In this document: piece by piece, positions 53,121 through 63,024 of the stretch | Numbering within the stretch: the stretch's first letter is position 1 | Layout: the number at the start of each line of letters is the position of its first letter | Virus record (IMG/VR): IMGVR_UViG_3300030330_005091 | Span: 32,001-96,000 of that record | Source: a virus | Taxonomy: Duplodnaviria; Caudoviricetes | DNA: 64,000 bases | Strand: one strand, 5' to 3' | The notes under the pieces: generated by a model | Told to the model about the DNA's origin: nothing | Database searches by the model: none | What the model saw: the letters and a program-made list of their open reading frames with translations, nothing else | Program-made: the position numbers and the translations under genes

Positions 53121-53175
53121 AATATAGCATAGGGGAGTGAAAAGGTCAAGGTTTAAGTTGTCAAGGGAATGTTAA
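53121..53175 (-). promoter_or_regulatory. boxed early promoter cassette 1
   Basis: TTAACA-N5-TTGACA, -35 TTGACC, N17, TATATT. Confidence 0.85.
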
Positions 53176-53474
53176 GAGTTGTTTTCTTTCTCTCTACTCT
53201 CCGCATCCAACTCTGCAAGGTCTTTAGCAACGTCAGCAAGGGTCATTTTACGGGTTTTACGCAATTTGTTCTGGGCTCGTTGCAGCTTGCCCCAGCGCCG
53301 TGAGTTAGCAGGGTGCTTACAGATGTGCAGGTTCTCAATGCCGATGGCTGTAAGGCGTCTGAGGCTGTTCTGAGTGGCTTTAAGGGTGTCGGGCTTAGTC
53401 AACACGCGCTCGCTGCCTGAGAGCCTTCCAGCCTCGTTAATCTCAACGTCTGTTTTACTGATATAATACTTCAT
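53172..53474 (-). CDS. hypothetical protein
   Basis: AAGGAG SD; stop inside cassette box. Confidence 0.65.
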   Translation of the reverse strand: MKYYISKTDVEINEAGRLSGSERVLTKPDTLKATQNSLRRLTAIGIENLHICKHPANSRRWGKLQRAQNKLRKTRKMTLADVAKDLAELDAESREKENNS

Positions 53475-53486
53475 GATCTCGGCTCC

Positions 53487-54740
53487 TTAGCAGTCGATTG
53501 CGATAACACGTTCATTGGTTTGGAAGTAGGGGCGAGCAGCGTGGACCTTGGTAGTCATCCACATACGTTGGCACTTGGATGCGATAGGCTTCGGAGCGCA
53601 AAGGTCAGTCAAGACAATGTGACCGTCAAAGTCGCCATCATTGACGAACTTGGTCGGCGCGTTGAAGCAAGTGCCGCCAGTCAACACGCGCTCGGTTTTC
53701 TTGGTTTGACCTTTCTTCCAAGTATATACCTTGTCAACGGCTACCTCGGTGTCGAATGGTACAACCGTGAACTCGGCAATCTCGGCCAGCTTGTTCAACT
53801 CGGAGAAGAACGCGGCGAGCATGCCATCATCAACCGATCCAGACTGGTCGATGGAGATAGCGATCTTGGCTTGACGACGCACGCGCTTGCCAGGGTGGAT
53901 CTTTGGGAACCGCTTGTTCAGGCGTCGAGGGGTCGAACGCTTGTCAGCACGTTGTGAGGTCTTGACGAAGTAACGAAGAACTTTGCGCCAATCAACCTTG
54001 GTCGCAACGCGGTCCATAATATCTTGACGCATACCAGACGAGACTGAGCCCCAGTTACGTGCCTTCTCAGCTTCCTCGGCAGCTTGCTTTACAGCTTCCT
54101 TCAATCGCTCTTTAGCAATCTCTTGAGTGGTGCTATCGCCATCACCGAACTGATCGTGACTGTCAAGTGAATCCATGCCACCGAAGGGATCACCATCGCC
54201 TTCACCGGGCTCGCCTTGACCATCGCCGTTGCTGTCTTGGTTCTCGGCCATATCTTTCAAGGCTTCGAGATACCATTCGTAGGTCTTGTTAGCAGGCAAG
54301 TGAGCAAACGGGCCTTCGCCGGGAAATACACCCTTCATGCCTTGACCATCGGCCATGATTGGGCCGGGGTCAGCTTCACACGGCAGCTTACCAGCCATTT
54401 CAGGCAGGCCGTTGATGGCAAGGTCCATCGCAATGTTGTCGATACGCTTGAGGCCATCGGCAGGCTTGCGGCCAGTCACGTGCTCGAAGATGATGTGATA
54501 GAACTCATGCATGAGGACACCAAGCTGATGCTCAGGCTTGAGAGCACCCATGAACTCAGGGTTATAAAGCAACTCGAACTGAGCGGTGTCGGGGTTGACA
54601 CGGACGCCAGCGGTCGGAAGGCTGGTAGTCGCGGTCTTGTCAATGCGACGAGACAGAGCGGCAAAGAACGGCTCGCGCATAAGCAGGCGAGCAGTGTGCA
54701 TGTTGAGATTGAAGGGCTTGATGGTCTTGTCGTCGGACAT
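53487..54740 (-). CDS. metallopeptidase-like (HExxH) + vWA protein, MoxR partner
   Basis: LMHEFYH; IDQSGSV; GGT.F; LTD; start at MSDDK after AGGAG. Confidence 0.88.
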   Translation of the reverse strand: MSDDKTIKPFNLNMHTARLLMREPFFAALSRRIDKTATTSLPTAGVRVNPDTAQFELLYNPEFMGALKPEHQLGVLMHEFYHIIFEHVTGRKPADGLKRIDNIAMDLAINGLPEMAGKLPCEADPGPIMADGQGMKGVFPGEGPFAHLPANKTYEWYLEALKDMAENQDSNGDGQGEPGEGDGDPFGGMDSLDSHDQFGDGDSTTQEIAKERLKEAVKQAAEEAEKARNWGSVSSGMRQDIMDRVATKVDWRKVLRYFVKTSQRADKRSTPRRLNKRFPKIHPGKRVRRQAKIAISIDQSGSVDDGMLAAFFSELNKLAEIAEFTVVPFDTEVAVDKVYTWKKGQTKKTERVLTGGTCFNAPTKFVNDGDFDGHIVLTDLCAPKPIASKCQRMWMTTKVHAARPYFQTNERVIAIDC

Positions 54741-54763
54741 GAATCTCTCCTGATTACCTATAT

Positions 54764-54817
54764 AATATAGCACGGGATGAGTGAAAAAGCAAGGGTTAAG
54801 TTGTCAAGGAAATGTCA
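54764..54817 (-). promoter_or_regulatory. boxed early promoter cassette 2
   Basis: CTGACA-N5-TTGACA, -35 TTGCTT, N17, TATATT. Confidence 0.85.
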
Positions 54818-55021
54818 GGAGATGGGAACACTAAAGGCAGCGTTGATCACTGTGTCGGCATACCATTGGGCACCGTCAGAACTGCCGTCAAATAGCCTGT
54901 AATGGCGTCTGTTGGCGTCAAGCTGTCCCCACTCCTTCTTGTAACTCTCACGCACTTCAACGACCAGACAGGGGCACTTATCGTGCTCCCTGATTAATAG
55001 GTCGCCTACCTTGAACTTCAA
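54815..55021 (-). CDS. small SH3/KOW-like protein
   Basis: FKVGDLLIR. Confidence 0.6.
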   Translation of the reverse strand: MKFKVGDLLIREHDKCPCLVVEVRESYKKEWGQLDANRRHYRLFDGSSDGAQWYADTVINAAFSVPIS

Positions 55022-56100
55022 GAGTTACCGCCAAGGATCTCAACAAGGTGGTCAGAGACACGGCGACCATCGGACGCCTCGGCCTTGTGGAGTGCCACAA
55101 CATTGTCAATGTTGTCGGTGTCACCGAGAACGGTCCACAACTTCATGGCGACCTCGGAAGGCAGGGTTACGAAGTAGTTGGCGAGGTTAGTGACCTGAGC
55201 CTCGGTCAGAGTCTCAGAGAACACATCAGATGCCTCGAACTTCTCAATCATGGCAGCGTGGTCATTGATACCCCACTGCTCGGTCTTCTCGATTTCACCG
55301 TTGTCAAGAATGTCAGCGATGGTCACTTGCCATTCGTACTTCTCAACGAAATCGCGGAGAGCGACAGCAGCCTCGAACCCGACGAAGGCAGTCGCGAGGT
55401 TGAACAGAAGGTCACGGTCGCCTTCCTCACCGAATACGCCGGTTGAAACTGCGGTATCGTTGAACCGCTTCCAGCTACGACGTGACGGGTAAACCTTGTT
55501 AGGCTCGAAGTCACCGCGATGCTCAAGGTGCATGCGGTTTTGGTTGATGAAGTCCCAGAGGATGCCATCAGTGCGGTCGGTCGCCCACTTCAACCAATCC
55601 TCATCGGAAGGCTCGACATCGAACACGGTCCAGCGGTCCAACTCGGCAGGGTCCATTTCGCCAACTTGGTATTGAGCACCGTGCTCGCCACCGTTGACAG
55701 CGGCAACGATCAGGGTGTCAGGGTGCAGACGCCAGCCGTTCAGCTTGCGGCTGTCGGTCAACTCGAAAAGACCCTGACGGACTTCCACAGTCGCACGATC
55801 AACCTCATCGAGGAACAGCATCACGGGCTGCTCACACGCGGTCACAAGCCAGTCAGGGGCGTTCCACGTGGTAGCCTTGCGGCCATTGATCTCGGTGTCT
55901 GCCGTGTCAGGCAGACCGAGAAGATCACCTTCGGTCATCTGGCTGGCACGACGCTCGACCACTGGAAGGTCGCGAGCAGCGGCGATCTGGTAGACCACCT
56001 CGGACTTGCCGACACCGTGACGACCGCGCAGAAGCACGGGCAGCTTGTTGTCGAGGATGTGAGGAGCGACGGTAGTGAATGTTGCGAAGTCGATAGCCAT
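55018..56100 (-). CDS. MoxR-like AAA+ ATPase
   Basis: GRHGVGKS Walker A, LFLDEVDR Walker B, MDPAELDRW, PSRRSW. Confidence 0.92.
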   Translation of the reverse strand: MAIDFATFTTVAPHILDNKLPVLLRGRHGVGKSEVVYQIAAARDLPVVERRASQMTEGDLLGLPDTADTEINGRKATTWNAPDWLVTACEQPVMLFLDEVDRATVEVRQGLFELTDSRKLNGWRLHPDTLIVAAVNGGEHGAQYQVGEMDPAELDRWTVFDVEPSDEDWLKWATDRTDGILWDFINQNRMHLEHRGDFEPNKVYPSRRSWKRFNDTAVSTGVFGEEGDRDLLFNLATAFVGFEAAVALRDFVEKYEWQVTIADILDNGEIEKTEQWGINDHAAMIEKFEASDVFSETLTEAQVTNLANYFVTLPSEVAMKLWTVLGDTDNIDNVVALHKAEASDGRRVSDHLVEILGGNS

Positions 56101-62126: not shown

Positions 62127-62277
62127 TGATCACCTCCATGTGTTGTTCGTGCATAAGAGAGATTCCGCCATGCCAGAAGATGTGCCAAAAGCCATCACCA
62201 TGCACAGGGGTTGGCTCGACCAAGATACATGGTCCGGGCGTTGCAAACGTGCAGTACATTAGGTCACCCGCTTGCAT
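62113..62277 (-). CDS. SH3/KOW-like array microprotein (54 aa, not in ORF track)
   Basis: MQAGDLMY...MEVINASR. Confidence 0.78.
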   Translation of the reverse strand: MQAGDLMYCTFATPGPCILVEPTPVHGDGFWHIFWHGGISLMHEQHMEVINASR

Positions 62278-62446
62278 TTAAGACCTCCATATCACATTCA
62301 GATGCGATTGTTCGAGCGCAAGTGTGATCGCGCAGCGCGACAACCCACGCAGCGTTGCCAAGCGCGTGACCCCACGGCTTGACAATCACGCCAATCTTGC
62401 CGCCAGCATGCTTTGTGTCCACTCTAACCAAATCACCGACTTTCAC
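62264..62446 (-). CDS. SH3/KOW-like array microprotein
   Basis: MKVGDLVRV...MEVLNASG. Confidence 0.8.
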   Translation of the reverse strand: MKVGDLVRVDTKHAGGKIGVIVKPWGHALGNAAWVVALRDHTCARTIASECDMEVLNASG

Positions 62447-62615
62447 TGATTACCTCCAGCCATTTCTTCGGTTCCCATGATGCTTCTGCATCTTCAATCC
62501 AATATACTTCAACACGACCAAGCCCATGCTTTTCCCCGTCTGGTTTCTCTCTCAAAACAATACCTGTGGCTGGCTCAATCGACCCAGGCATTATTACCAA
62601 ATCACCGACTTGCAC
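62433..62615 (-). CDS. SH3/KOW-like array microprotein
   Basis: MQVGDLVIM...LEVISESR. Confidence 0.8.
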   Translation of the reverse strand: MQVGDLVIMPGSIEPATGIVLREKPDGEKHGLGRVEVYWIEDAEASWEPKKWLEVISESR

Positions 62616-62787
62616 TGATCACCTCCAAATGTTGTGGTTGAAAGCAACACACGGCCCCAGTGTGGGACAACATGACGCCCCACAAATCAGATACCTTAAA
62701 GTATTCGACAACGATACCTGTCGCAAATGACCCGTTAGCGCGTCGGCTATGGACTGTCAGACATTTAACTAAGTCACCGACTTTCAT
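62602..62787 (-). CDS. SH3/KOW-like array microprotein
   Basis: MKVGDLVKC...LEVISASR. Confidence 0.8.
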   Translation of the reverse strand: MKVGDLVKCLTVHSRRANGSFATGIVVEYFKVSDLWGVMLSHTGAVCCFQPQHLEVISASR

Positions 62788-62947
62788 TGACTACCTTCAA
62801 ATAGCATACTGAATAGTTACCCACATCGCCATCGTTCCATGTGACTTCAACTTCTTCCATATCGCCAATCTGTTCAGGATCTACGCATGTGATAATACCC
62901 AACGCTGGCAATCCTCCCCGCATCTTAACTAAATCACCGACTTTCAT
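62774..62947 (-). CDS. SH3/KOW-like array microprotein (57 aa, not in ORF track)
   Basis: MKVGDLVKM..LGII..EVTW..LKVVNESR. Confidence 0.8.
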   Translation of the reverse strand: MKVGDLVKMRGGLPALGIITCVDPEQIGDMEEVEVTWNDGDVGNYSVCYLKVVNESR

Positions 62948-62969
62948 ATTTCTCCCTGATTACTTATAT

Positions 62970-63024
62970 AATATAGCATCATCGAACACTGCCGTCAATG
63001 GTTTGTTTGTCAAGGAAATGTCAA
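62970..63024 (-). promoter_or_regulatory. boxed early promoter cassette 11
   Basis: TTGACA-N5-TTGACA, -35 TTGACG, N17, TATATT. Confidence 0.85.

Follow-up and report, generated by a model that had tools for sequence, protein, structure and literature searches.

Sigma-70-type promoter cassettes with paired TTGACA boxes mark gene-module joints in large uncultured ocean T4-type phages

What is a pair of -35-like hexamers doing upstream of an actual -35 element, and what reads it, when the same arrangement recurs before one small gene module after another? This question is raised by a 64,000-nucleotide stretch (the window) from a 195.7-kb T4-type phage record. By PWM scan, we identified 11 promoter cassettes in the window, all on the minus strand, and three further copies past its end. 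The 14 matches all fall within 85-101.6 kb of the genome on a single strand, with scores of 40-66 compared to at most 10.7 in shuffles. The cassette reads, in order, C-TTGACA (box A), N5, C-TTGACA-A (box B), N9, TTGACn (-35), N17 and (TGn)TATATT (-10), followed by a conserved leader and then a ribosome-binding site and start codon. An earlier note on this DNA had described eleven cassettes with a TATATT -10, a 17-bp spacer and a TTG-type -35, and we found all three features in 11/11 window cassettes. The -35 elements belong to the types TTGACn (seven), TTGCnn (three) and TTGATC (one), and TG is present at -15/-14 in ten of the eleven. The motif TGACA-N6-TGACA was seen 12 times in the window, while 0.21 occurrences are expected by chance. 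Promoters with consensus elements and without boxes are also present elsewhere in this genome.

In window coordinates, and always on the minus strand, cassette 1 (62947..63025) has box A at 63024-63019, box B at 63013-63008, -35 TTGACG at 62998-62993, -10 TATATT at 62975-62970 and ATG at 62947. Cassette 2 (61343..61405) has its boxes at 61404-61399 and 61393-61388, -35 TTGACT at 61378, -10 at 61355-61350 and ATG at 61343. Cassette 3 (60757..60838) combines box A at 60837, box B at 60826, -35 TTGATC at 60811, -10 at 60788-60783 and the start at 60757. Three cassettes then carry box variants: cassette 4 (59677..59754; box A CTGACA 59753, box B 59742, -35 TTGACG 59727, -10 59704-59699, start 59677), cassette 5 (58884..58962; box A 58961, box B TTTACA 58950, -35 TTGACA 58935, -10 58912-58907 without TG extension, start 58884) and cassette 6 (58089..58169; box A TTAACA 58168, box B CTGACA 58157, -35 TTGACA 58142, -10 58119-58114, start 58089). 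Cassette 7 (57646..57726; box A 57725, box B 57714, -35 TTGCGA 57699, -10 57676-57671, start 57646) precedes the gene for a double zinc-knuckle protein, and is followed by cassette 8 (56690..56772; box A 56771, box B CTGACA 56760, -35 TTGCAA 56745, -10 56722-56717, start 56690). Cassette 9 (56100..56214) has a long leader before the gene of a MoxR-like AAA ATPase; its third box, previously noticed at 56209, is located at 56213-56208, upstream of box A at 56202, box B at 56191, -35 TTGACC at 56176, -10 at 56153-56148 and the start at 56100. Cassette 10 (54740..54819; box A CTGACA 54818, box B 54807, -35 TTGCTT 54792, -10 54769-54764, start 54740) precedes a gene for a DUF2201 metallopeptidase/VWA protein, and cassette 11 (53091..53176; box A TTAACA 53175, box B 53164, -35 TTGACC 53149, -10 53126-53121) starts with GTG at 53091. 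The three cassettes beyond the window end are at 64323, 66437 and 69598, the last with a 16-bp spacer.

Two further elements lie outside this series. A variant promoter on the minus strand (51867..51925) has a box pair at 51925-51910, a TTGACA -35 located 20 bp after box B instead of the usual 15, and a TATGAT -10; the 20-bp form is also present in relative L175. The cassette region ends downstream in a cluster of box pairs (51328..51461), which occur in both orientations around the G/C-rich element GGTGGGACCTCCCCCCTACCCCCCACC. This cluster is retained in relatives L175 and L229 with changed pair orientation, and such pairs outside promoters could be debris of cassette recombination rather than independent binding sites.

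From the first base of the box B TTGACA to that of the -35 is 15 bp, and box A lies 11 bp further upstream. The 15 bp given earlier for a TGACA box is the distance of the TTGACA start, that of TGACA being 14 bp. The earlier statement that distances never vary is true of the 11 window copies, while the 20-bp variant (51925-51867) and the copy with the 16-bp spacer (69598) depart from it. If the start site is put 7 nt downstream of the -10, the boxes extend from approximately -62 to -45 (centres at about -47.5 and -58.5), which replaces the previous estimate of about -50 to -65. In a count where the geometry was not imposed by the search, same-strand TTGACA start-to-start distances equalled 11 bp in 235 cases, 12 bp in nine and 10 bp in none. 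The joint counts of box B to -35 distance and spacer length (n=297) were 225 for (15,17), 31 for (14,17), 28 for (15,16) and nine for (15,18), and where the spacer measures 16 or 18 bp, the distance from box to -35 is still 15 bp in 37/38 copies. The boxes keep register with the -35 (at 15 bp) rather than with the -10.

We calculated conservation by position for 223 non-redundant cassettes. Box mismatches occur only at position 1, where T>C predominates, and at position 3, where G gives way to A or T and rarely to C; position 6 of box A accounts for six more. T2, A4 and C5 are almost invariant, with a single T2>C, in box A. The G>T change at position 3, which removes the stop codon, is common in box B. 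Both the linkers and the -35/-10 spacer are unconstrained in sequence. The real -35 varies at positions 4-6 (A4 0.80, C5 0.78, position 6 mostly T). The boxes had been noticed earlier as better conserved than the -35; imperfect copies (CTGACA, TTAACA, TTTACA) do occur in the window. The full TTGACA serves as -35 in 11/59 boxed promoters, in contrast to 61/95 plain promoters of sister phages (Fisher p = 2.6e-8). The anatomy and geometry of the boxes, and selection on them, are established here, and the conservation profile, the avoidance of TTGACA at the -35 and the register suggest that the boxes are not read as sigma reads a -35.

The cassettes are also joints where related phages swapped gene modules, that is, mosaic breakpoints. 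Blocks of homology between phages start right at box A: their 5' ends lie no more than 10 nt from the box A start in 190 of 1773 cases, compared to 17 in a random control, and gene-module order differs between relatives at the cassettes. For about two thirds of the upstream ORFs, the stop codon lies within the cassette: it is the box A TGA in 110/251, the box B TGA in 35 and a TAA at +20 in 14. Stops in all three frames were found in 134/258 cassettes versus 8% of random windows. Terminator-like sites at the cassettes are not above chance (eight versus 11.2 expected), and no recombinase was found linked to the cassettes. The earlier note had missed this role as module joints (upstream stop, no terminator, homology breakpoints), as well as the spread of the design across the clade.

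The same design was identified in more than 118 IMG/VR stretches and is clade-wide in large uncultured ocean T4-type phages. The 11 complete relatives have 7-13 copies apiece, always on one strand, and a reversed control pattern gave 0 matches in their scan. The box sequence does not drift across lineages with capsid proteins only ~60% identical. Before orthologous genes, sister phages have A-rich upstream stretches and a perfect -35 in place of the boxes. No boxed-promoter regulon of this design was found among 185,579 bacterial species-representative genomes.

One explanation is that RNA polymerase itself reads the boxes, which would dock sigma region 4 or serve as a UP-element substitute for the alpha C-terminal domains and raise polymerase capture without an extra factor. 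The box matches the -35 consensus exactly, including the preceding C, is identical across lineages, keeps its register with the -35 and fills the UP-element zone, where sister phages have A-tracts; moreover, no dedicated reader was found in the phage genomes searched. However, box conservation is the inverse of that of a sigma-70 -35, with ACA invariant and T1 and G3 variable, whereas positions 4-6 of the true -35 accept changes. UP elements are degenerate and rich in A/T, unlike these invariant G/C-containing hexamers, and in this phage a -10 partner at 17 bp is missing for both boxes. The avoidance of TTGACA at the real -35 is also difficult to reconcile with sigma reading all three sites. 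We regard this explanation as unlikely. The breakpoints at box A, the rearranged module order, the three-frame stops and the upstream stops inside the cassette would also be expected if the boxes mainly served cassette exchange, as recombination homology or recognition sites (PeSL-like mini-circle or site-specific) with built-in stops for whatever reading frame enters from upstream and with a small or absent effect on transcription, and the PeSLs provide a precedent for such exchange (PMC4122927). We consider this quite unlikely: homologous recombination would homogenise or use the entire cassette, but what is fixed here is single box positions, with linkers and spacers free to vary; stop-codon retention does not account for G>T in box B; recombination needs no fixed 15-bp distance to the -35; and the cassettes are without a linked recombinase.

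Could the boxes instead be pho-type sites read by host PhoB/PhoP, so that accessory early genes would follow host phosphate status? The phage carries phoH, and the half-site variants fit TTnACA-type PhoP sites. The complementary strand of the pair reads TGTCA-N6-TGTCA, which resembles the E. coli pho box CTGTCAT in core and period (PMC4415409), a likeness to PhoB boxes that had been pointed out earlier; the TGTCA core, however, has the opposite orientation and lies upstream of the classic pho-box position, before an intact -35 instead of replacing it. In addition, box pairs are missing upstream of phoH and of all genes outside the cassette region, and many OmpR-family sites look alike. We consider this alternative very improbable. 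The earlier proposal of a single regulator, host or phage, for the whole early region is supported in part: the cassettes are sigma-70-type promoters that have selected, helically spaced repeats, half-sites like those of OmpR/PhoB (T-T-n-A-C-A, 11-bp period) and a profile unlike the true -35. Such a regulator is putative, and a phage-encoded one of the Trans_reg_C, LytTR or CII type did not emerge. Trans_reg_C had no match above cut-off in 11 phage genomes, LytTR or CII-type proteins are not encoded in phages of the clade (the CII homologue being absent across the 11 genomes), and MotA (MotCF) and AsiA had no match in the phages. Two phage proteins were considered as readers. An 87-aa Cys-rich sigma-70 region-4-like protein, encoded at genome 119.9 kb as part of an operon with a box-less promoter upstream, shows a helix-turn-helix of region 4.2 at 35.7 bits (above the Pfam cut-off); however, four complete genomes with 8-10 box-pattern matches each lack this protein and have no Sigma70_r4 match at all. 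The double CCHC zinc-knuckle gene (window 56768-57646) always follows a cassette and is among only 3/456 ORFs present in 7/7 box-rich and absent from 2/2 box-poor complete genomes, but its homologues are common in sister phages with plain A-rich promoters, at loci without box pairs, and CCHC knuckles mostly bind single strands. It is therefore very improbable that either candidate reads the boxes. Since none of the phage candidates fits, the putative reader is a little more likely to be of host than of phage origin.

The reading we prefer, with a probability of roughly 0.45, treats the cassette as an early promoter of composite build that doubles as a gene-cassette joint. It would be a variant of the PeSL (promoter-early stem-loop) cassettes in which a putative tandem DNA-binding protein binds the box pair. 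Each composite cassette of ~80-90 bp would restart host-RNA-polymerase (sigma-70-type) transcription ahead of a single small gene module, whose accessory genes are probably early, in the hyperplastic GC-rich region of a T4-type marine phage. Its core (-35 TTGACn, 17 bp, extended -10 TGnTATATT, conserved start region and strong ribosome-binding site) would be read by the host holoenzyme. Together, the two boxes are most likely a single tandem site, arranged head-to-tail, at which a winged-helix protein of the OmpR/PhoB type would bind double-stranded DNA sequence-specifically and contact sigma region 4 or the adjoining alpha C-terminal domain, since the site is positioned relative to the -35. 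Such a protein would replace the A-rich UP-like stretches and perfect -35 of sister phages, and might boost, gate or later shut off transcription. As a module joint, the cassette provides the stop codon of the upstream gene, without a terminator, and an exchange point as in PeSL cassettes. We infer here a reader other than RNA polymerase, its type and the timing of expression; the cassette genes are probably early by analogy with T4. Several observations count against our preferred reading. With its near-consensus core, the promoter should fire unaided, and activator dependence is therefore not obvious; a box equal to the universal -35 consensus without lineage drift would also fit polymerase as the reader; the bacterial representatives yielded no regulon of this design; the pair cluster outside promoters may be recombination debris; and no reader was found in the phages, where both candidates fail on distribution.

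It is conceivable, though doubtful, that the pair is read by a factor docking beside sigma region 4 (either a host protein that is conserved, or one that the phage delivers or makes first), which would define a separate promoter class and a new phage transcription-control system in a very large uncultured ocean myovirus clade, with a cis element doubling as a universal cassette-exchange joint. Abundant in ocean metagenomes, these phages have no cultured member; the cassette can serve as an exact and portable marker of their accessory early genes and as a ready probe for the putative box-reading factor. A dedicated reader, if true, would be a new way for T4-type phages without MotA/AsiA to sort promoters into classes, while polymerase as the reader, if true, would amount to a novel type of upstream promoter element. 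Together, built-in stops and box A breakpoints give a concrete model for small-gene shuffling between phages.

The cassettes can be compared with several known systems. In T4 MotA/AsiA middle promoters, the Mot box at -30 replaces the -35, whereas a -35 is present here. Lambda CII sites are TTGC-N6-TTGC direct repeats around a poor -35; they resemble the present boxes as short repeats one helical turn apart in a phage promoter, with CII acting as an activator beside sigma region 4, but they straddle the -35 with a 10-bp period. In strong promoters of bacteria and early promoters of T4, UP elements (~ -40 to -60) share the position of the boxes, and sister phages are A-rich there before orthologous genes; the boxes differ as two precise, G/C-containing hexamers. 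Sites of the OmpR/PhoB family are direct repeats bound head-to-tail, with a 7-bp unit and 4-bp spacer, as in the double CTGTCAT of the pho box (PMC4415409, PMC4832192). Our boxes share this unit, spacer and 11-bp period, the TGTCA/TGACA core, TTnACA-like variation and a promoter-adjacent location that fits a sigma region 4 or alpha contact. In contrast, their TGTCA core appears only on the complementary strand with flanks different from those of E. coli CTGTCAT (PMC4415409), an intact TTGACn -35 stays 15 bp downstream of box B in an already strong core, neither replaced nor overlapped, and the cognate winged-helix regulator is not above cut-off in the 11 phage genomes. PeSL cassettes of the T4-type phages RB49/phi1, T4/PST and KVP40/nt-1 (Arbiol 2010, PMC2839356; Comeau 2014, PMC4122927) likewise repeat a unit of sigma-70-like early promoter, Shine-Dalgarno and start codon; as here, the units separate small variable genes within hyperplastic regions and lie at junctions where related phages differ by insertion, deletion or replacement. 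PeSLs have a stem-loop (terminator) just before the promoter and are AT-rich upstream, whereas the cassettes described here have no such stem-loop, TTGACA boxes occupy -62 to -45 where only sister phages have A-rich stretches, and the upstream gene stops inside a cassette that carries two invariant TTGACA direct repeats at a fixed distance from the -35.

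The earlier note had described eleven promoter copies of fixed geometry, each with an upstream TGACA direct repeat, in window 53121-63024, and this observation was confirmed with small corrections because it agrees both with the motif counts and with the coordinates, which run exactly from the last -10 element to the first upstream box. The window has 12 copies of the pair TGACA-N6-TGACA, where 0.21 would be expected, all of them within 51.3-63.0 kb. The position-weight matrix derived from these copies gave 14 matches genome-wide, all on the minus strand at genome positions 85.1-101.6 kb (11 in the window), and the cassettes scored 40-66, while shuffled genomes did not exceed 10.7. 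The cassette is laid out as C-TTGACA-N5-C-TTGACA-A-N9-TTGACn-N17-(TGn)TATATT, where the first two repeats are designated box A and box B. Downstream of it come the conserved start region, AAGGAG, and the start codon. No known RNA family matched.

The IMG/VR phage record that holds the window (bases 32001-96000) is 195,690 bp long, with all long genes on the minus strand. Its gene products include a T4-type DNA polymerase, a tail sheath protein, GroEL, PhoH, and a major capsid protein whose nearest counterparts, at 34-47% identity, belong to Rhodothermus phage RM378, Flavobacterium phage immuto, and Microcystis phage Mel-JY01. The phage further encodes, on the minus strand, its own tmRNA (tag ANNNNHFEQRLAA) together with three tRNAs, one of them a long-arm tRNA-Asn (window 27924-28255, 23158-24459). 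The G+C content of the cassette region (window 51000-64000; genome 83-102 kb) is 45-55%, compared with 33-36% in the preceding 50 kb, and an excess of 2-9 points over the remaining genome was found in all seven complete genomes checked. Among the genes of this region are a MoxR-like AAA_5 ATPase (window 55018-56100, minus strand) and its partner, a DUF2201 metallopeptidase/VWA protein (window 53487-54740, minus strand), each with its own cassette. The minus strand further contains arrays of mini-genes of 50-60 aa each (window 61971-62947 and 57901-58089) that overlap at junctions of the form (A/G)TGAAAGTCGGTGA, where a gene's start codon falls 14 nt before the stop of the gene preceding it; the same junction is found in the related genome G001 and in a WOR-3 assembly fragment.

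Spacing was counted without imposing the geometry. The start-to-start distance of TTGACA hexamers on the same strand was 11 bp in 235 cases, 12 bp in nine, and 10 bp in none. Among 297 non-redundant cassettes, the combination of the distance from box B to the -35 with the -35/-10 spacer was (15,17) in 225, (14,17) in 31, (15,16) in 28, and (15,18) in nine, and a longer spacer compensating for a 14-bp box B distance was never seen in this set. Since the 15-bp distance is kept in 37 of the 38 copies with a 16- or 18-bp spacer, the boxes are positioned relative to the -35 and not to the -10, which would point to contact at sigma region 4 or the adjoining alpha domain.

The cassette extends to a clade of uncultured phages. 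No cultured phage showed it when 50,697 phage records were searched by megablast and blastn, and the only match to the exact full geometry with TATATT in IMG/VR was an unrelated GTGACAGTT iteron. The relaxed pattern CTTGACA-N4-CTTGACAA-N7-9-TTG, however, matched more than 118 IMG/VR stretches, many with 2-6 copies, against a chance expectation that we roughly estimate at 10; the gap was 8 nt in 106 of 126 among the matches listed. About 12 retrieved loci were left out as unrelated elements, one of them being CTTGACAACCTCTTGACAAAGCATTATATTGG. This element is conserved as a single copy in another phage group (loci L121, L135, L150, L154, L159, L172, L176, and L187), where box A serves as the -35: the first box lies 17 bp ahead of TATATT, so that the pair overlaps the core promoter. 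Eleven complete genomes of 167-204 kb each contain 7-13 pattern matches, confined to one strand and clustered in 10-16 kb, and the reversed control pattern had zero matches in these genomes.

Box conservation was described from 223 non-redundant cassettes that had been located by their core promoter only. Departures from the box sequence affect position 1 (mostly T>C), position 3 (G>A/T, rarely C), and, in six cases, position 6 of box A. The bases T2, A4, and C5 are nearly invariant, with a single T2>C in box A, and the sequence is free in the 9-bp linker and the 17-bp spacer. Concerted evolution of entire cassettes would not yield such fixed positions beside free linkers. The real -35 of the same cassettes resembles an ordinary sigma-70 site (A4 0.80, C5 0.78, position 6 mostly T), and in an independent locus set the full TTGACA occupies the -35 in 61 of 95 box-less but only 11 of 59 boxed promoters (Fisher p = 2.6e-8). 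A third perfect box thus seems to be avoided at the -35 position. This depletion, together with the differing conservation, suggests that the boxes are read otherwise than the -35.

Contexts of distant homologues of a zinc-knuckle protein encoded in the cassette region, drawn from IMG/VR, include many related contigs without box pairs within 6 kb, where the orthologue has a perfect TTGACA-17-TATAAT promoter and an A-rich stretch upstream. The phage record itself likewise has consensus promoters that lack boxes and have A/T-rich DNA upstream; these lie outside the cassette region, for example before groEL. Promoters thus fall into two classes, and the boxes fill the place of UP-like elements.

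We searched for a factor that could read the boxes. Trans_reg_C, LytTR, and CII domains are absent from this phage and from ten other box-rich complete genomes, and MotA and AsiA domains are absent from this phage. An 87-aa protein with a Cys-rich N-terminus and a helix-turn-helix resembling sigma-70 region 4.2 (Pfam 35.7 bits; minus strand, 119,866-120,129 in whole-record numbering, equivalent to 1471-1734 of retrieved locus L110) occurs in eight of 12 complete relatives. It was rejected as the reader, as it is absent, like any Sigma70_r4 match, from four complete genomes with 8-10 box-pattern matches each. Gene-content profiling of nine complete genomes left only three of 456 ORFs that all seven box-rich genomes share and both box-poor ones lack. 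These encode a trypsin-like peptidase, an NAD epimerase, and the double CCHC zinc-knuckle protein (292 aa; window 56768-57646, minus strand), which has two invariant retroviral-type knuckles and the invariant N-terminus MSYNGTVRC. The zinc-knuckle protein has at least 137 unnamed homologues, all metagenomic, in a family widespread in uncultured marine phages. Because this family is common in sister phages that lack the boxes, its link to them fails, and it was likewise rejected. In the other box-rich-only genes (the peptidase, the epimerase, and large proteins of unknown function) no DNA-binding domain was recognisable, and the Atlas yielded nothing.

A search of 185,579 bacterial and archaeal genomes, each representing a species, showed the full design only sporadically, and no host regulon with it is visible. 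Bacterial matches are single and unrelated apart from two clear ones, which are phage DNA within metagenome-assembled genomes and were discarded as host clues. Of these two, L229 (NZIV01000080.1, a Neomarinimicrobiota metagenome-assembled genome) is simply a phage contig placed in that bin, and L230 (CP070664.1, 'candidate division WOR-3 bin77 chromosome') is a phage fragment of about 2.5 kb with two cassettes, which adjoins an N-run inside cellular genes and so is probably a chimera of the assembly. Neither locus is reliable evidence of a host. The unrelated assembled contigs L405, L410, L403, and L408 (Alphaproteobacteria, Omnitrophota, Clostridiales) have single triple-TTGACA promoters spaced at 11 and 15 bp but no protein similarity to the phage.

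The cassettes also mark joints between gene modules. Of 251 cassettes, 110 end the upstream gene with the TGA in box A, 35 with that in box B, 14 with a TAA at +20, and 7 with the -35 TGA. Stop codons close every reading frame in the stretch from box A to the -10 in 134 of 258 cassettes, compared with 8% of random windows. Terminator-like sites were not above chance (8 found, 11.2 expected). When related contigs were compared all against all, homology blocks of at least 250 bp had 1773 upstream ends, of which 190 lie no more than 10 nt from where box A begins; a random control gave 17. Downstream ends concentrate at the boxes and the start codon, and the order of modules varies among relatives at the cassettes.

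Four TGACA-N6-TGACA pairs, one of them inverted, flank the G/C-rich element GGTGGGACCTCCCCCCTACCCCCCACC at window 51328-51461. The related loci L175 and L229 keep both the element and the pairs with changed pair orientation, which hints at binding outside a promoter. The hairpin fold of the inverted pair cluster is only modestly better than shuffles (z = -2.2). The cluster could be debris of cassette recombination, as described for degraded promoter-early stem-loop (PeSL) cassettes of T4-type phages; alternatively, it may mark where the early region ends, or an origin.

We tentatively favour, with a probability of about 0.45, a dedicated tandem DNA-binding protein as the reader of the box pair. 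The half-site T-T-n-A-C-A, with a 7-bp unit, a 4-bp spacer, and an 11-bp period, would suit such a protein; OmpR/PhoB-family sites share this half-site style (PMC4415409, PMC4832192). Specific control by PhoB is very improbable. Polymerase itself might read the boxes, as they equal the -35 consensus in every lineage and our searches yielded no separate reader, but we consider this unlikely. The conservation profile unlike that of the -35, the avoidance of TTGACA at the real -35, and the register tied to it would all argue for a dedicated protein.

The breakpoints and stop codons could also mean that the boxes are mainly recombinational; this leaves the fixed single positions and the fixed -35 distance unexplained, and we regard it as distinctly doubtful. 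That either phage candidate, the 87-aa protein or the zinc-knuckle protein, is the reader after all is the least probable reading. The single regulator, host or phage, that the earlier note proposed for the early region is a reasonable but unproven hypothesis, and the cassette itself is a real, strongly selected, clade-wide promoter and joint. PeSL cassettes behave likewise as module joints (PMC4122927). The stem-loop of PeSLs and their AT-rich upstream region are missing from the cassettes described here, which have a double box upstream and represent a new variation on the PeSL idea.
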